Notes: generated by a model not told the origin, from the sequence alone. A stretch of DNA of 38,237 bases from a bacterium (GCA_044869275.1 JBIOXB010000249.1:1-38237); one strand, 5' to 3'. Positions 2,013 through 38,024 are shown, counted from the stretch's first letter. A program made the numbers and translations.

Positions 2013-2795
2013 TCAACGGCACATTTCTGCCAGCAAAATCGCCGCGGCAATAGCGACATTCAACGATTCGCCGCCGCCGCGCTGGGGAATGGTGATGCGG
2101 TGATGGATAATTTCTTTCACGCTCGGCGACAGGCCTTCGATCTCATCGCCCAGCACCAGCACTTTTTTCGAAGCAAAACGCAAGGTGGTATAAGGAAAAT
2201 CGCCGGTTTGATCGGCGCCGTAGAGCACGGCGCCGAACATTTGAAATTTGCGCAGCAACTCGGTGAATTCGGTGACGTCATGAATGGCCAGGCGGAAAAT
2301 GGAACCCATGCTGGAACGCACGACTTTGGGGTTGTAGACCTCCACGCAGTTCGGGCCGATGATCAAGCCGTCCACACCCATCCAATCCGCCGTGCGCAGG
2401 ATGGTGCCGAGGTTGCCAGGATCGTGCAGCTTCTCGATCGCCACCAACAAACAGCGTGGCGATTGCCGCAAATGCTCCAGCGGATCGCTTTCCGGGTGAC
2501 GGCGATGCACCACCGCGACCAGGCCCTGCGAATTGATGGTGTCTGAGATGTTGACAAAGTCGTCGACCGGGACCTCGGAGACCGGCAGCTGTTTTAGCTG
2601 GGCCAGCTTGAGAGCCTGGCGGGCGCGCAGGGAGTGCAGAAAGGAAGAGCAATAGACGATGTGTTCGATGGGCCAGCCAGATTGAATCGCTTCTTCGCAA
2701 AGACGGCCGCCTTCTGCCAAAAAGCAATTGGTCTCGGCGCGATATTTTTTTTGCGTCAGGCGAGTAATCGACTTGATGTCGTTTTTGGTTAGCAT
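2013..2795 (-). CDS. TrmH/SpoU family RNA 2'-O-methyltransferase
   Basis: SPOUT motifs DPGNLGTILRTA, KVVRSSMG, LGDEIEGL and ESLNVAIAA. Confidence 0.95.
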   Translation of the reverse strand: MLTKNDIKSITRLTQKKYRAETNCFLAEGGRLCEEAIQSGWPIEHIVYCSSFLHSLRARQALKLAQLKQLPVSEVPVDDFVNISDTINSQGLVAVVHRRHPESDPLEHLRQSPRCLLVAIEKLHDPGNLGTILRTADWMGVDGLIIGPNCVEVYNPKVVRSSMGSIFRLAIHDVTEFTELLRKFQMFGAVLYGADQTGDFPYTTLRFASKKVLVLGDEIEGLSPSVKEIIHHRITIPQRGGGESLNVAIAAAILLAEMCR

Positions 2796-2828
2796 GGGAG
2801 CAACAGAGTCCGCGTCCTCTGAACCTCG

Positions 2829-3299
2829 TCAAATGTCGTGATACTTGTCTTCCTCGCGGCTGATCGCGCCGAAAGCGTCGGCGGCATTGGCGGCCGTGGC
2901 GAGGCGCTGGCGGAAATCGGGTTTGTGCACCAGGCGGGAAATGCGGCTCAAGGCCTTCAAATGCGGGCCGGTTTGGTGCGGCGGCCCGACCAGGAGCCAC
3001 ACCAGGGTGACCGGCTTGTCATCAATCGCGTCGAACTCCACCGGCGCATGCGCGATGCCCAGCGCGGCCACGATCTCCGGGGCGGCTTCGGCTTTGCCGT
3101 GCGGAATGGCGACACCGTCACCCACACCCGTGCTCATCACCGCTTCACGATCGAGTATGGCCTTGAGGACTTCGTCTTTGTTTTTGATGCGTCGTGCTGT
3201 GACCAGCATCTCGACCATCTCTTCGATGACTTGTCGTTTCTCCCGGCTCGCGAGCGGAACTTTGATGAGTTCTTCCGAGAGAATATCTTTCAACTTCAT
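2829..3299 (-). CDS. PTS EIIA component (Fru/Ntr-type, PtsN-like), stand-alone
   Basis: REAVMSTGVGDGVAIPHG (phospho-His), FDAIDDKPV and HLKALSRISRL; SD gaaggag upstream of ATG 3299. Confidence 0.93.
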   Translation of the reverse strand: MKLKDILSEELIKVPLASREKRQVIEEMVEMLVTARRIKNKDEVLKAILDREAVMSTGVGDGVAIPHGKAEAAPEIVAALGIAHAPVEFDAIDDKPVTLVWLLVGPPHQTGPHLKALSRISRLVHKPDFRQRLATAANAADAFGAISREEDKYHDI

Positions 3300-3543
3300 T
3301 GAAATTCTTTCTCCTTCACAGTACGGCTTGTCCGCGCGCAACATCTCTCCTCCTGAGCTGAGCATTCATGGGACTGGCGTCGGGTTGAGCAAGAGGAAGT
3401 GGCCGGCCGTCGTGGGGGGCATTCCTGGTTTGAGCCAAGGGCGCAGCAGCCCGAGGCTCTTATCGTTTCATCCTTTGCAGACGGCAGTCATCGTCAGGTC
3501 TGCGGCGGGCAATTTATCCTCAGAAAGGATAGCCGATTGAAGC
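3300..3543 (-). ncRNA. Candidate structured 5' leader / cis-regulatory RNA of the EIIA gene
   Basis: Several stems (tatcct/aggata, gcagac/gtctgc, gagcc-gggc/gccc-ggctc, ctttctgag/ctcaggagg). The 5' end cttca..cggct pairs with agccg..tgaag, which overlaps the SD. Confidence 0.4.
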
Positions 3544-3549
3544 GCGTCA

Positions 3550-3578
3550 AATTTAGAACGGTTAAGGCAATTTTGCAA
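3550..3578 (-). promoter_or_regulatory. Sigma70-type promoter TTGCAA-N17-TAAATT
   Basis: Direct reading; 17-nt spacer; predicted start near 3543. Confidence 0.55.
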
Positions 3579-3579
3579 A

Positions 3580-6243
3580 TCATTTTTCACGGTGAGCTTT
3601 CTCCTGCACGCTGCTTCCTGCTTCACGGTTTTTCGGCCGCTCCTGTCGCCAGCCCAGTCCGAGGCACGATAAAGCCACCAGTAATGCGCTGATACTGGCC
3701 GTGGCGCCGAGTGTAAAGGCGGAGGAGGAGTAACGGAATTCCACCACATGTTTGCCGGACGGAATTTCAACCGCGCTAAAGGCGTGATTGGCGCGCAAAG
3801 TTTTCACAGGTTGGCCGTCGATAAAAGCTGTCCAGCAGATTGGGTAGTAATTATCGCTCAACACCAATATTTGCGGAAATTGGCAGGCGGTTTCGACAAT
3901 TATTTCATGCAACCCATAGCGCTTGATTTCAGACTGCGCCGTCGTATCCGGCAGCGGCGCCGTGGCTGGTTTATCCGATAACAGCACGGTACGATGCGGA
4001 TCGAAATCGCCGGCGCGCAGGCGCCGCAGAATCTCTTGGTCACTTGCCACATGCTCGTATTGTCCCACCAAATACGCGCGCGGGAGCACCGACATGTTCT
4101 CGTAAATCAGCAGAGGCCGTGCGTTGCCCCCCTGCTCATAGGTGACGGGTTTGCGAATCTCCCAGCCCAGTTCGGGCAGCGGATAAAATGAAAGAATGTA
4201 TTTCACGTTCAACAAATCCAGCAGCCGGCGATTGGCGCGATGCCGCTCTGGCGGCAGCTCTTCGGGCGCCAGCGCTTGCAGCGCGCGCCTGCCATTTTGA
4301 TTGACGCCGCGGAAGTAGTCATTCACAAAACCAGTCTGCAATTGCGTCGCGTCGAGCACATCCTGATAGCGCCGCGGCTTGGCGGGATGATAACCGCCCA
4401 CGCTGGCGAGGGCTTGTGCGGACCAGCGCAGCTCGCCGAACAATTCCGCCACCGGAAAAATGCGAAACACGCCTTTATCTTCCTGCAGGAAACGCGTGGC
4501 TTCATCAGGCTGCAGCAAAGCGGAAATATTTTTCCGCGGCACCGGGGCCTCGCCGATTCTTTTGTCGACGATCCAAAGATCGAGCACAGTCAAGAACGTA
4601 ATGGCCACGGCCGCGGCCGTGGTGGAAATTTTTTTCGAATACGCCAGCGCCAGCATGCTCAGGCCCGTGCACAGTATCAATCCCACCAGCCACAGGTCCG
4701 CCAGCAGTTTGTTGAAGCGCATGGTATCGAGCTGCAATTGTGTCGGCGCTTCATAAAGGTCGGGATAGAACCCGCGCATCAATTCAAAAAAGGGGCTGCG
4801 CCCGAAAGTGAACAACAGCATGACGCCGAAGACCGCCAGCGCCGCCGTCCACAGCCGCTTGGCCAAAGCCGCGTGGCGCGCGCCGGTTTCGCGATCGACC
4901 TTTTCCGTGAGCGGCTGCAGCAAAGCCTGCAATCCGAGCCCGGCGAGAATCGCAACGGAGCATTGTACCAGAATCAAAATCATCACCGGCACGCGAAATT
5001 TGTTGAAGTAGGGAAAATAGTTATAAAAGATTTTGTAGAACCAGGCAAAGTGGTTTCCGAAAGAAATCAGCAACGCCAGCAGAATGGCCGTGCCGAAGAA
5101 TCCCGCCAACGGCACGCGCTTAACCAGGGCCACCACGGCGAGCGCCAGCACGAGAATGCCCATGTAATTGGGATAATCCGTGAATGGCATGTTGCCCCAA
5201 TACGTGAAGCCGCCGAAGCCGTAAAAAGAAGGAAGGACGAAAGTCATCATCTCGCCCGGCGAGAACGACCATTGTGTGGCATAATCGAATCCCACGCCCG
5301 TGCCGGTGTTTTCCGCCGCGGCTTCCAGCGCCGGAGCCGAGCCGCGAATCGAATACGGCGTGTATTCTTGCACCGGCAAGTACAGGATGGCGGCAAGCGC
5401 AAAGGCCAGGATCACAGCGCCGGAAAAACCTCCGATTAATGGCAGTATTCTGTTGTTCTCCTTCCGCCGCAGCGCCAGCAAGAGGTGGTAAAGAAAATAG
5501 AGGCCGAGCAGCATCAATCCGTAATAGGCTATTTGCACATGCCCGCGTTGCAGCATAAATCCCATCACCAAACCGGCGGCACCGAGATTGAGCAAAGATA
5601 ATTTTTCGAACAAACGATCAACGGACCAAAGCGCAAGCGGAAGATAGGCGGCCGTCATCAGCTGCGTACCGTGGCCAAAAACGGTCATGGTGATCATGTA
5701 AGGCGTGAGCATGAAAGCTAGGCCGCCGGTGAGCGCCGGCCAGAGGCCGGCGCCTTTGCGGCGGAGAAACAGGAAAAGACCCAAACCTGCCAGCGCATAA
5801 TACAATCCCGGAAACACTGCTGCTCCCAGAATGCCTCCCAGGGGCGCCAAAACGACACCGGGGAAGTAAGAGTAGGGCGCGTAAAGCAGACTACCGGCGG
5901 TGGGCATGCCGGCAAAGAGGTATGGTACCCATTGCGGCAATATGCCCTCCTGCTCGTGCGCTTTGATCAAAGGCGCGGTAATCGCAGCCGGCGCTTGCGC
6001 ATCCGGAGAGGTATAAGTCTTGCCGGCAAAGATGATCTCAAAGAAGAAAATGAAACTGATCGCCGTCAAAACGCCGAACACCGTGAGCACCGGATGTTTC
6101 GCCATCCAGGCTGCAACACCCTTGCGGGAAGGCTGGGATTTGCCCAGCGCCGGCGTAGCGAGGGGGGAAGGTTTATGCTGGACTGCGCCAGCATGCGGTT
6201 TCTGAGTCTTTTTTTTAGCCATTGGTTTTTTCATTTGGTTCAA
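3580..6243 (-). CDS. YfhO-family polytopic membrane protein (GT-C type glycosyltransferase)
   Basis: PQWVPYLFAGMP, GHVQIAYY, YWGNMPFTDYPNYMG, FNKFRVP, DLLNVKYI and the C-terminal 'LVLSDNYYP..WTAFIDG....LRANHAFSAVEIPSGKHVVEFRY' are typical of YfhO. Confidence 0.88.
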   Translation of the reverse strand: MNQMKKPMAKKKTQKPHAGAVQHKPSPLATPALGKSQPSRKGVAAWMAKHPVLTVFGVLTAISFIFFFEIIFAGKTYTSPDAQAPAAITAPLIKAHEQEGILPQWVPYLFAGMPTAGSLLYAPYSYFPGVVLAPLGGILGAAVFPGLYYALAGLGLFLFLRRKGAGLWPALTGGLAFMLTPYMITMTVFGHGTQLMTAAYLPLALWSVDRLFEKLSLLNLGAAGLVMGFMLQRGHVQIAYYGLMLLGLYFLYHLLLALRRKENNRILPLIGGFSGAVILAFALAAILYLPVQEYTPYSIRGSAPALEAAAENTGTGVGFDYATQWSFSPGEMMTFVLPSFYGFGGFTYWGNMPFTDYPNYMGILVLALAVVALVKRVPLAGFFGTAILLALLISFGNHFAWFYKIFYNYFPYFNKFRVPVMILILVQCSVAILAGLGLQALLQPLTEKVDRETGARHAALAKRLWTAALAVFGVMLLFTFGRSPFFELMRGFYPDLYEAPTQLQLDTMRFNKLLADLWLVGLILCTGLSMLALAYSKKISTTAAAVAITFLTVLDLWIVDKRIGEAPVPRKNISALLQPDEATRFLQEDKGVFRIFPVAELFGELRWSAQALASVGGYHPAKPRRYQDVLDATQLQTGFVNDYFRGVNQNGRRALQALAPEELPPERHRANRRLLDLLNVKYILSFYPLPELGWEIRKPVTYEQGGNARPLLIYENMSVLPRAYLVGQYEHVASDQEILRRLRAGDFDPHRTVLLSDKPATAPLPDTTAQSEIKRYGLHEIIVETACQFPQILVLSDNYYPICWTAFIDGQPVKTLRANHAFSAVEIPSGKHVVEFRYSSSAFTLGATASISALLVALSCLGLGWRQERPKNREAGSSVQEKAHREK

Positions 6244-34166: not shown

Positions 34167-34271
34167 GTTTTTTATTCATGTTTGTGAATGCTTTCAAAAT
34201 ATCCGCACGGCGGCTTGTGCGCGTCTGGCATCGCGTTTTCCGGTATCCTCGGCCGCACCAACGGAGGGAGA

Positions 34272-36107
34272 ATGGCCACCAAGATTCCGCCGGCCAAAAT
34301 TTTAGTAAATCGCAGCATTGATTTCCAGGCGTGCCGGCATCCGCGGGAAAAATTTCTACTGCGTCTCATTATTTTTTGGAGTCTCCTCACTGCTGCCGGT
34401 ACCATCGGGCTGGGCTTGCGCTTCCCGAGAATCTTCGTGATCACGGCGGGATCGCTCATATTGCTCGTGCTCCTGGTTTTTCTAAAAAGAAGATTCTCCT
34501 TTGCCCGGCTGCTCGGCAACAGCTTGCAAGCCAGCGCAGACAACTTTCCGGAAATGCAATATATCAAAACCGTCGTTTCCAAGGCATTGGAGGAGGCGCG
34601 GCCATGGGAGATTCACGTCTCGGACTCCGCGCCGCTCGCGCCGCGGGCATGGCAAGCAGCCGGGCGAGGCCTGCTGCTTTTTAATGACCGGATGGCGGGC
34701 GCCATGCTCAACCGCCATGACATTGGCCAGATGATCTGGTTGATTGGGCGCATGCTCGCGCTTCCGGCGAAACGCCGCAAAGTCGGGCTGCCGGTGCGCG
34801 GGCTATTGTTTCTGGCTGGTGTCAATCCCTTGGCCTGGCCTTTTTTGAATCTCTATCGCCGCCTCGAAGAATTCTCTGCCGATCGCATGGGGCTGGCACT
34901 CAATCTTTCTCTCATCGATGCCGCCGAAGCCTTCAAGAAAATGATGAGCGGCACCGGCCTGTTTGCGCGCGCGAATTTTGCGCAAATGGACGGGCAGGCC
35001 GCCGCGCTTCGCCGCAGCGGGCTGGCTTTGTTCGGTGAAATTGTTTTCGGCCGACCGGCGCTGGCGCGGCGTTACGCGGATCTGATCGACTTTTGCCGCG
35101 TGCAATATCCCGATCTTTACGCTGATTTCGAAATCCATCGCCAGTATGCGCTCAACGTACTGCCGAGCTATCGCGAAGTGCAGGAATTTTCCGAAGGCAA
35201 GGAAGAAGAGAAGAAGATCTTGCGCGATCTCGGCAAGCTCGTTTACGAGTTCATGAGTGCATTGCCGCCATTGAACGAAGCGGACACCATCAGCCGCAGT
35301 TTTCTGCAATTGCATCGCAATCGTGATGCCGCCGCAGAGTTGGAGGCCAAGATCAAGCGTTTGGACACGGCCAAAGGCGAATGGCAAAGCGTCGTTGCCA
35401 AAATCGAGGGGGCGGAGCAGAAACGTGAGAACGCCAATCGCGCGCTGGAGGCCAACTATCGGGAAATCGGCCGTGTTGCCTTTGCCAGCTTGGCGGAAGA
35501 AATTGGCAAGCTGCCTGCGCTGCAGAAGATTTTTGCGAAAGCACAGCAATACCAGGTGGTGATGCGCGACCGCGAAAGCGAAATCGCGCGGTTGGAGACG
35601 GCGGTAGGCGGCATGCTCGATAAATCCAAACGCAAAGTCGAAACTCTGGCGCTGCGCACGCAGATTGCGAACGACGGCAAGCGCATGCAAGCCGCGGCCG
35701 AAGCCGCGGGTGAAGAATTTTGGAAATATTTCGCCGACCATTTCACGCATGACGAGCTGGAGCCGATCAAGCTGCGCATCACCGGCGTGATTGCCGAGCT
35801 CGAACGCCGGCGCGTGGAATTGGAAAATCTGCACGCGCAAAAGCGCGAAATCGAAAAGCGCCTCGAGCCCGAGGGTCTGCCCTCCACCACCAAGCCTGAC
35901 ATTGACATTCCGGTATTCATTGAGCAGCTCAAGAACCAGGCTCGCGCCGCCAATGCGTTGCGCCCGCGTCTGCTCGAGAATCTCGGCAAAGCCTATTGGC
36001 AACACGAGCGCGATTATCATCCGGACACGCGCGGGGTGATCGAGCAGTTGAATGATTTGAAGAAGAGGATAAGGGGGTTTGAGCAGGAAGAGAATTCGAC
36101 GAACTGA
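34272..36107 (+). CDS. Membrane-anchored inactive M48-peptidase-like domain fused to a long coiled coil
   Basis: SD ggaggg; two TM helices; EEFSADRMGL resembles the M48 ExxAD motif, but the HExxH position reads GRMLAL; about 300 aa of heptad-rich C-terminus. Confidence 0.7.
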   Translation: MATKIPPAKILVNRSIDFQACRHPREKFLLRLIIFWSLLTAAGTIGLGLRFPRIFVITAGSLILLVLLVFLKRRFSFARLLGNSLQASADNFPEMQYIKTVVSKALEEARPWEIHVSDSAPLAPRAWQAAGRGLLLFNDRMAGAMLNRHDIGQMIWLIGRMLALPAKRRKVGLPVRGLLFLAGVNPLAWPFLNLYRRLEEFSADRMGLALNLSLIDAAEAFKKMMSGTGLFARANFAQMDGQAAALRRSGLALFGEIVFGRPALARRYADLIDFCRVQYPDLYADFEIHRQYALNVLPSYREVQEFSEGKEEEKKILRDLGKLVYEFMSALPPLNEADTISRSFLQLHRNRDAAAELEAKIKRLDTAKGEWQSVVAKIEGAEQKRENANRALEANYREIGRVAFASLAEEIGKLPALQKIFAKAQQYQVVMRDRESEIARLETAVGGMLDKSKRKVETLALRTQIANDGKRMQAAAEAAGEEFWKYFADHFTHDELEPIKLRITGVIAELERRRVELENLHAQKREIEKRLEPEGLPSTTKPDIDIPVFIEQLKNQARAANALRPRLLENLGKAYWQHERDYHPDTRGVIEQLNDLKKRIRGFEQEENSTN

Positions 36108-36409
36108 GGCAACAATTCAATTTTGTTTGTTTGCTCGTAACTATTCAGACTTTTTAGAAAAGCAAAACGATTACAGGTCAAACTATTGAAAAACTCTGGG
36201 CAAGATAATTTGATGGCAAAATGATTTCAAATTTCTGCCTTGACTCGGGTACAATGCCGAGTTCACGCCCTAGTGCCGGATTTACCAAGAGGTCTTCTGC
36301 GTGACAGAACGAGGATTTCGGACGGGCTCAAAGCCGCAATGCGTTTGGTTAGCAAGCCGAATCGCAGCGCACGCGGAATGCCACAGAATAAACCTGAAAA
36401 ATCGCCAGA

Positions 36410-36763
36410 TCAGCAGGTCACATGAAGAAGTGCCCGAACCTTCTTACCTTCCTCGTTTGAAATAAGCCGACAGGCCTCCTCAGTGGGTACGGCGACGATC
36501 TCGATGCCGCGTTGCTTGGCCTCAGCAAGAATTTCAGGCATGATCGGCAATTTCCCGTAGGCACCCGTGCCGACGATCAAGCGCTCGCCGCCCCATGGGA
36601 TTTCCTCATCAACCGATAATGGCGTGTGTCCGTACTGGTCACGATAAACCTTGGAAGGCTTCTTTTTCCGTTTGCGGATCCCGATTTCGTCTATGATCAC
36701 GTCATAGTCGTAGCGCTGGCCGTCAATTTCGATCTCGCCAAAATCGACAAACCGTGCATTCAA
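36410..36763 (-). CDS. Mth938-like (DUF498/DUF598) domain protein
   Basis: FGEIEIDGQRYDYDVII, YGHTPLS, LIVGTGAYG, PTEEAC and ALLHVTC; SD aggagg with TTG start. Confidence 0.88.
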   Translation of the reverse strand: MNARFVDFGEIEIDGQRYDYDVIIDEIGIRKRKKKPSKVYRDQYGHTPLSVDEEIPWGGERLIVGTGAYGKLPIMPEILAEAKQRGIEIVAVPTEEACRLISNEEGKKVRALLHVTC

Positions 36764-36876
36764 GATCTACCTCCTGCTCGTAAAGAGAGCATTATTTGAA
36801 CACCCTTCAGAATAGCTGATTTTCAGAAAAACAACAAGCCACAGAGCGTCAGGCCCTTTTTTGAAAACCCCCGGGC

Positions 36877-36904
36877 AAAAAAAATCCCCGGCTTGTGCTG
36901 GGGA
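36877..36904 (-). terminator. Intrinsic terminator downstream of the candidate ncRNA
   Basis: tccccagc-acaa-gccgggga followed by T8 on the minus strand. Confidence 0.75.
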
Positions 36905-36967
36905 AATCTTTTAGTTGCTGATCGATTGATTCTAATAATAGCAAAGTGATGGAGGAAAAAATCGACA

Positions 36968-37126
36968 TGGAGCGCGGGACAATGCCGCAAGTTTGGGGAA
37001 CGGCGCTTCGTCTCTCTCGCATGCAGCTAAAGAGCGAACGCCTATAAAAAAAGTGGCTCAAGATGAGCAAAGCTCACCTTGTCCAATTGCGATGGACTCG
37101 CAATAAGGCGGTCTTTTGTCCCGCGC
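36968..37126 (-). ncRNA. Candidate 159-nt structured ncRNA with an 11-bp closing stem and 3' U-CCA
   Basis: GCGCGGGACAA (37126-37116) pairs perfectly with TTGTCCCGCGC (36982-36972), followed by TCCA; three internal hairpins; own promoter and terminator. Confidence 0.6.
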
Positions 37127-37133
37127 GGTTGCA

Positions 37134-37162
37134 AACTTAAGAAACAGAAAATGAAAAGGCAA
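37134..37162 (-). promoter_or_regulatory. Sigma70-type promoter TTGCCT-N17-TAAGTT
   Basis: Predicted +1 at about 37127, at the 5' end of the closing stem; A-rich sequence upstream. Confidence 0.6.
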
Positions 37163-37262
37163 ACTATTTTTTATGTCATCAGTTCGCCCGCATTTTGACC
37201 AAGGCACGAACACCTGAGAACGGATCTATTGCGAATACCAATACCCGCCTGCGGCGTCTGAA

Positions 37263-38024
37263 TCAGTTCTGGATCTTCGTCAGCTCTATTCGGCTGCCCC
37301 CTGCTTTGGGCTGAACTTCCAACACCTGACCTACTCCAGGCGCGTAGAATTTGAACTCACGCGCTCCTGGTTCAAGCGGCGTCCACTCCACCGTTTGCAG
37401 GCATTCTTCGTATGTCCCGTAGGGCACCTCGGCTTCCTCGGAAAGACTCACCACCTTCGCCATATCTTCGGCCACACCCTCGGCGAGCTCTTGCTGGTAC
37501 TTCGTCCCTACGGTTGGATTGGCCAGCATGATGATGCCGGGCTGCGCTCCATTAACGCCAGCCTCCCACGAACCCGCGGTGCTCACGACTTGGCCATCTT
37601 GGATTTCTTTGGAGTCCTCGCCAAAATACCAGACATTGCCATCTATGTCCTGGGCGAACCAATCGAAGGTATCTTCGATGAGCTCCCCATTGAGAAACGC
37701 CTGATCGTGCACGACGGTTGTGACCACCCCAAGGATGGTCTTGGTCTGCTTCGTCACCTCGACCACGATCTGCTCGAGGCCATCCTCGGTCTCGCCTTCG
37801 TACGTAAACACTTTCCCGGGCGTGAACGCGAGATAGGCGTTATCGATCACTGCGACGAAATCCTCGGGCTGGGGGAGCTCTGGCAGGCTTCCGGTGGACC
37901 CTGCTCCGGTTGGCGGTGTTAGGGGTGAGTTGACGGTTGAGGGGGTCGAGGAATCGGTCCCACAACTCGCAAGAAACGCGCTCGTTAGGACCGCCAGAAT
38001 GATCATGAACACGTTGCGATACAT
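37263..38024 (-). CDS. Uncharacterised lipoprotein
   Basis: SD aggagg; lipobox FLASC; Ser/Thr/Pro linker; beta-rich domain with IDNAY..., EDTFDWFAQD..GNVWYFGE, GSWEAG and KFYAPGVG. Confidence 0.85.
   Translation of the reverse strand: MYRNVFMIILAVLTSAFLASCGTDSSTPSTVNSPLTPPTGAGSTGSLPELPQPEDFVAVIDNAYLAFTPGKVFTYEGETEDGLEQIVVEVTKQTKTILGVVTTVVHDQAFLNGELIEDTFDWFAQDIDGNVWYFGEDSKEIQDGQVVSTAGSWEAGVNGAQPGIIMLANPTVGTKYQQELAEGVAEDMAKVVSLSEEAEVPYGTYEECLQTVEWTPLEPGAREFKFYAPGVGQVLEVQPKAGGSRIELTKIQN

Follow-up and report, generated by a model that had tools for sequence, protein, structure and literature searches.

The question raised by this locus is whether the stretch that runs on the minus strand from about 37178 to 36877 is a gene for a structured RNA and, if it is, to which kind of RNA it belongs. 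The window, that is, the whole stretch of DNA analysed, is 38,237 nt long and corresponds to contig C249 of genome G000; coordinates without a contig name refer to it, and the RNA is read on its minus strand. The initial annotation had proposed a stand-alone structured gene of the stable-RNA type without a known family, and this general idea is supported by the fold, by the conservation of the whole cassette and by the blank Rfam searches. The reading that we favour, with a probability of about 0.6, is an independently transcribed, lineage-restricted gene of ~250 nt (~37126-36878, minus strand) for a structured, trans-acting small RNA (sRNA) that belongs to no described family.

Direct reading of the sequence located every element that had been claimed for the minus strand at its place (Table 1). 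The TTGCCT-N17-TAAGTT promoter layout is present, with 7 nt from TAAGTT to G37126. The hexamers and their spacing thus hold, but not the consensus strength, given that by our own count only 7 of the 12 hexamer positions match; in a generic scan of 36300-37500 no sigma-70-type promoter was listed, the TTGCCT/TAAGTT site scoring under the threshold. In alignment A1 of the three copies of the RNA, one in G000 and two in the congeneric genome G001, the -35 hexamer reads TTGCCT, TTGATT and TTGCCT and the -10 hexamer TAAGTT, TACTTT and TAGTTT; the 17-nt spacer is kept in all three, the first G of the closing helix P1 sits 6-7 nt past the -10 hexamer in each, and CATAAAAAAT is retained in the A-rich stretch upstream. 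TTGCCT also serves as the -35 hexamer before a tRNA-Met gene in G000, and TTGACT-N17-TAtatT is the promoter at its 6S gene and at several of its tRNA genes. A sigma-54 promoter built on an upstream TGGCAT was rejected, as its spacing is wrong and G000 reads TGACAT. As a separate observation, T-rich stretches in which TTTGC/TTTTGC motifs recur lie ahead of at least eight G000 tRNA genes (Thr, Tyr, Trp, Met, Leu, Asp, Ala and others), in place of TTGACT-N17-TAtatT; these stretches could represent another type of promoter or else an upstream element.

Table 1. Features of the RNA locus, with positions in the window
Feature	Position	Strand	Basis or detail
A-rich stretch, 5' of the -35 hexamer	37163..37178	-	5' edge of paralogue similarity (blastn)
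Promoter-like site	37134..37162	-	TTGCCT 37162-37157, 17-nt spacer, TAAGTT 37139-37134
Folded core, 155 nt, closing helix and three hairpins at a four-way junction	36972..37126	-	MFE, centroid and RNAalifold consensus folds; covariance model R1
P1 5' arm, GCGCGGGACAA	37116..37126	-	Predicted transcript start at or just before 37126
P1 3' arm, UUGUCCCGCGC	36972..36982	-	Perfect pairing with the 5' arm
P2 hairpin, 7-bp stem, 5-nt loop	37086..37104	-	AUUGCGA-GUCCA-UCGCAAU
P3 hairpin, 3 + 10 bp, UUU loop	37054..37085	-	CAAGGUGAGC-UUU-GCUCAUCUUG
P4 long hairpin, 41 nt, single-A bulges	37002..37042	-	Folds
UCCA directly 3' of P1	36968..36971	-	Among the copies, in G000 only
Trailer, mostly unstructured	36905..36967	-	Contains the invariant AUCGAUCA block
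Intrinsic terminator, 8-pair hairpin (36904-36885) and U8 (36884-36877)	36877..36904	-	3' edge of paralogue similarity

The perfect 11-bp stem that was said to begin at G37126 is there without a mismatch, and the ccgc/gcgg helix, the three hairpins and the U7 run in the linker are all present as described. Inside P1, one more G-C pair and then the CCGC/GCGG helix are common to the MFE, centroid and consensus folds; within the core, an 11-nt U-rich linker joins P3 to P4 and a 13-nt C-rich linker follows P4. On the same strand, the trailer of ~65 nt and, after it, a hairpin with U8 could be confirmed. The P3 hairpin and the U7 run (37056-37068 and 37043-37053, minus strand) were themselves flagged as terminator-like within the RNA; this linker U run is shorter in the G001 copy on contig C26 and absent from that on contig C157, and a short transcript of ~80 nt ending after P3/U7 is possible in G000 only.

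The predicted fold is far more stable than expected from composition: the folding energy of the 167-nt stretch is -73 kcal/mol, compared to -47.8 +/- 4.3 kcal/mol for shuffled sequences (z -5.86; 0 of 200 shuffles as good), and that of the 253-nt unit is -95 kcal/mol (z -6.93; none of 200 shuffles equal). The plus strand is also stable (-67.6 kcal/mol, z -5.71). The claim that the G-U pairs are possible on the minus strand alone proved overstated: the core has six G-U cells in favour of the minus strand, but also three A-C cells that would pair on the plus strand only, and the wobble cells of the terminator stem comprise one G-U versus two A-C, with a minus-strand A-C mismatch in two of the three copies. 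Wobble pairs prefer the minus strand slightly, without a clear choice of strand, and the assignment to this strand is made mainly from the U8 tract and from the fact that the promoter-like hexamers are conserved. On the terminator itself, we observed that the scan used reports the 36904-36885 hairpin on the plus strand, where it pairs fully with a G-U, the A-C mismatch of the minus strand being that of G000 and G001 C157; with an A tract on one side and a U tract on the other, this hairpin may act bidirectionally.

All comparative evidence comes from one congeneric genome, G001 (unpublished), the sole other genome of the genus. G000 has one copy of the RNA and G001 has two, with 76% and 74% identity to the G000 RNA in a DNA search; among 61 related genomes, that search gave matches in two, G000 and G001. 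Likewise, covariance model R1 matched 2 of 19 genomes of the family, 2 of 125 of the class and 2 of 151 sampled from the phylum, and these were always G000 and G001. The copy on G001 C26 is syntenic with that in the window, with a shortened upstream lipoprotein gene before it and a DUF498 gene after it. The copy on G001 C157 stands behind an FtsX/MacB-type permease and is followed by small, unrelated ORFs and a protein with a P-loop, and the similarity of this contig to the window (blastn) is restricted to 37178..36879, i.e. from promoter to terminator. The DUF498 protein itself occurs in 3 of 19 family genomes, and a synteny search gave no further RNA loci. In the metagenome collection, two pattern scans found no copy; the one of the genome collection returned two stretches, L024 and L025, which are apparently the two known G001 copies and not independent ones. 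Plasmids and phages gave no match, and 84 viral stretches with a 16-mer pattern were set aside as chance, with no covariance-model match at E<=1 in the 80 that were fetched.

Some features of the surrounding genes are recorded here in their own right. A 253-aa lipoprotein-like ORF without a Pfam match lies 5' of the RNA (37263-38024, minus strand). Its G001 C26 counterpart (L002:1102-1392) is a 96-aa ORF in which the N-terminal ~8 residues are joined to the C-terminal part; this indicates a putative internal deletion in the G001 gene. On the plus strand, 34188-36107 encodes a 639-aa ORF, also without a Pfam match, whose C-terminal part is conserved at the syntenic place in G001. Downstream of the RNA in G001 C157, L024:4170-6044 encodes a protein that exceeds 625 aa and combines a P-loop (GESGAGKT) with transmembrane-like segments; two small ORFs without a Pfam match precede it, and this region may be variable or of a defence type.

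Sequencing runs were examined as Logan contigs (n=4, one RNA and three DNA), and the soil/sediment runs among them include close relatives. A contig from a related strain (X7) spans 36881-37031 with eight differences, all of them in 36913-36966 and none in the part of the core that it covers (36972-37031). Soil run X4 yielded several partial pieces with unlike flanks and with loose ends at 36985 and 37020. The contigs of the RNA run (X20) fall on 37304-37396 only, within the neighbouring coding gene, at 89-95% likeness.

The core is the better conserved part of the three aligned copies: in G000 it is 82% and 76% identical to that of the two G001 copies, compared to 65% in both for the trailer. 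Variable columns make up 16 of 98 paired versus 40 of 65 unpaired positions (Fisher p 4e-9), for a structure that was derived from the same three sequences, and standard pairs account for 95.9% of the pair cells versus 31-45% when the partners are slid. Two-sided changes occur in 2 of 49 pairs, and 51 of 500 shuffles do likewise for three sequences; covariation is weak and without significance at this number. Helix by helix, the first 9 bp of P1 are invariant in all three copies; the P2 stem is also invariant, with a loop that varies as GUCCA, GUACC or CUCAA, a variation on which the alternative GUCCA/UGGAC pairing was rejected; and P3 shows one compensatory change from A-U to G-C, together with a 7-nt insertion in the loop of G001 C157. 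No ORF is common to the three copies, and each of them has a terminator hairpin with a U tract.

Could the RNA nevertheless belong to a class that is already known? In Rfam 15 there was no match in the window at the gathering score, and at E<=10 the six matches to 36600-37400 all had E>=0.52 and at most 18.5 bits, none of them plausible. The initial annotation had likened the helix end to the acceptor of tRNA-Gly, a minihelix whose GCG...CGC-U-CCA end would be read by GlyRS, the CCA-adding enzyme or RNase P. The equivalents of G1-C72, C2-G71 and G3-C70 are invariant in all three copies and in G000 a U-CCA stands directly 3' of the helix, but the homologues do not keep it: UCCA in G000 is GUCA in G001 C26 and ACUA in G001 C157, so that the discriminator is U, G or A and CCA is found in one copy of three, compared to U73 in all three tRNA-Gly genes of G000. 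The lack of an encoded CCA is not decisive by itself, because most G000 tRNA genes are also without it (by our own reading of their tails, only ~7 of 47 encode CCA). The folds, however, contain neither a T arm (5 bp, 7-nt loop) nor an anticodon arm, let alone a cloverleaf, and P1, with 11 bp and then 5 further pairs, differs from the 7 + 5 stacked helix of acceptor and T arm; moreover, ARAGORN detected no tRNA or tmRNA gene in the window. In the portion of the GlyRS study drawn on here, the determinants for the bacterial enzyme are G1C72, C2G71, C35, C36 and U73, the enzyme requires the arms and the L-shaped tRNA as a whole, and U73A lowers or abolishes charging (PMC10464925). Of the determinants given in that portion, the RNA has none past the first three pairs, with C35/C36 and the L-shape missing, and a mimic of tRNA-Gly is highly improbable. 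The proposal of a divergent 6S RNA that sequesters RNA polymerase was refuted, and what likelihood it retains is negligible. A size of ~160-250 nt, in the range of stable RNAs, and a long terminal helix made by the 5' and 3' parts are a loose fit to 6S; the Rfam 6S model (RF00013) also drew a blank across the whole of G000 at genome-search sensitivity, and, with matches in only 4 of 18 family genomes, it left room for a diverged 6S. Nonetheless, RF00013 does not match the locus even at E<=10 and G000 has a bona fide 6S of its own on contig C90: six 6S queries from related genomes all match C90 ~3223-3413 (75-85% identity, E down to 1e-51, blastn), and C90:3228-3416 (minus strand; L026:1229-1417) aligns with RF00013 end to end (1-187 of 187) at 34.6 bits and E 6.9e-5. 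The RNA described here, furthermore, folds as a branched four-way junction and not as a single long helix with a central bubble. We observed in passing that the 34.6 bits of the C90 gene lie under the Rfam gathering score of 46.4 and that at E<=0.01 RF00013 had matches in 36 of the 61 related genomes, of which 16 exceeded the cut-off; as its 4 of 18 family genomes reflect, 6S is systematically under-called in this lineage. Other housekeeping RNAs of G000 are encoded elsewhere, namely RNase P on C210 (212 bits), SRP RNA on C171 (64.9 bits) and tmRNA on C24 (182.7 bits). Bacterial Y RNAs of the YrlA type, finally, combine a tRNA-like module with a Ro60-binding stem. The RNA resembles them in the long terminal stem around a multi-helix domain and, superficially, in the acceptor-like helix end, but it has neither a hairpin like the T arm nor an Rfam Y-RNA match at E<=10, and the zero matches to TROVE/Ro60 (PF05731) in G000, which is 94.4% complete, speak against a Y RNA.

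The inverted repeats formed by the two arms of P1 have a bearing on two further explanations, and the downstream gene on a third. An orphan retron-like msr/msd, reverse-transcribed by an RT encoded elsewhere, would share with retrons the 11-nt terminal inverted repeats and the order of two short hairpins and then one long one, and G000 does encode RTs (three PF00078 matches, on C154, C184 and C137), that on C137 being best scored as retron-type (PADLOC RT_VI, 231 bits). Of what the annotation had advanced here, the terminal inverted repeat stands and the retron reading falls: no RT (PF00078) is found on C249, G001 C26 or G001 C157, that is, on any contig that carries the RNA, the eight matches in G001 being elsewhere. 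Known retron RNAs are co-transcribed with their RT. The present RNA has its own terminator, is followed by DUF498 in the window and is seen with two unrelated sets of neighbouring genes; the C137 RT is itself directly preceded by a pair of 8-nt inverted repeats, 158 nt apart; and the invariant G that lies 2-3 nt past the repeat, a candidate for the unpaired branching G of retrons, is predicted to be paired. We hold this explanation to be remoter still than the tRNA mimic. The C137 locus deserves mention by itself: a 316-aa RT is encoded at ~2647-3597 (L117:1148-2098), with inverted repeats at L117:907-1080, and RT and upstream repeats together are a candidate retron with its own msr/msd. A DNA-level element in place of an RNA gene, either MITE-like or some other inverted-repeat element or a site for recombination or binding, would account for the perfect 11-bp terminal repeats on a 155-bp core, the presence of more than one copy in G001, the partial pieces with unlike flanks in soil run X4, and the near-equal folding of both strands with its weak wobble signal. 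This is, however, very unlikely, considering that the similarity between paralogues passes the inverted repeats into the promoter-like region, the trailer and the terminator, that copies are few (one in G000, two in G001), that the repeats are flanked by CAACC and TCCAT without a duplication, and that plasmids, phages and the 80 viral loci are blank. The third explanation is a cis-acting leader, a riboswitch or attenuator in which the core would respond to a signal and thereby govern whether transcription passes the U8 terminator into the DUF498/Mth938-like gene. Its order of promoter, multi-helix domain with P1, terminator and, 114 nt on, a same-strand ORF, identified as DUF498 (PF04430, 44.7 bits), is what one expects of a leader, and is identical at the syntenic copy on G001 C26. 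On the other hand, G001 C157 has the whole cassette without DUF498 downstream, the next same-strand ORF being an unrelated one of 108 aa ~250 nt off; DUF498 follows two of the three copies, and those two are orthologous loci; and, in the interval from the terminator to the start of DUF498, G000 and G001 share a conserved promoter-like stretch. Ligand pockets of riboswitches are formed by junction and loop nucleotides; the junction and loop nucleotides of the core are its most variable parts, and no Rfam riboswitch matches at E<=10. A leader function is unlikely on this evidence.

The explanation that we prefer is therefore that of an independently transcribed, trans-acting sRNA; that the locus is an RNA gene in the first place is probable. 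A sigma-70-type promoter would set +1 at the first base of the long closing helix, a start position predicted from the spacing to the -10 hexamer. The closing helix would enclose a four-way junction with three hairpins, together the 155-nt core, and would be followed by the ~65-nt, mostly single-stranded trailer and by the intrinsic terminator; the unit that appears to have been conserved and duplicated is this cassette from promoter to terminator. The RNA would then act in trans, with the folded core as the functional module, most likely as a platform that binds a protein or another macromolecular partner. The core is cast in this role on account of its conservation, which is the highest of any part and extends to the sequence of its helices, and we propose the partner-binding mechanism tentatively. 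The trailer, with its invariant AUCGAUCA, may provide a secondary contact or a base-pairing segment. That the RNA is a classical base-pairing sRNA is somewhat doubtful. Duplex folding of the trailer with 8,494 crudely defined translation-start regions gave only unrealistically long, large-loop duplexes and no coherent top matches, and was set aside as uninformative. A bolder version, which we regard as quite unlikely, is that the four-way-junction core founds an undescribed class of folded RNA in a self-contained, duplicable cassette, acting in trans by ligand binding or catalysis or as a decoy for tRNA-processing enzymes; in the decoy variant, these enzymes would act on the GCG/CGC end of the helix, which resembles an acceptor and coincides exactly with the predicted +1.

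Trans-encoded sRNAs with their own promoter and Rho-independent terminator are the closest parallel. The RNA is like them in being a compact intergenic cassette with no conserved ORF, with promoter-like hexamers, a U-tract terminator hairpin and a single-stranded segment before the terminator. It differs in its four-way-junction core, which, closed by a helix of 11 bp and 5 further pairs from the predicted +1, is far more elaborate than base-pairing sRNAs typically are, and in that the best-conserved region is this core and not the single-stranded part. Altogether, it is probably an orphan bacterial sRNA and, on present evidence, not a new kind of system. The outcome is mostly negative, in that the tRNA-mimic, 6S and retron readings fail and the RNA is left as an orphan with three sequences in one genus. 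We know of no RNA biology described for the lineage of uncultured soil bacteria from which it comes. The closing helix at the predicted +1 and the duplication of the whole cassette offer clean experimental handles and, if expressed, the RNA would count as a novel small RNA of unusual elaboration and as a candidate for a new Rfam family.
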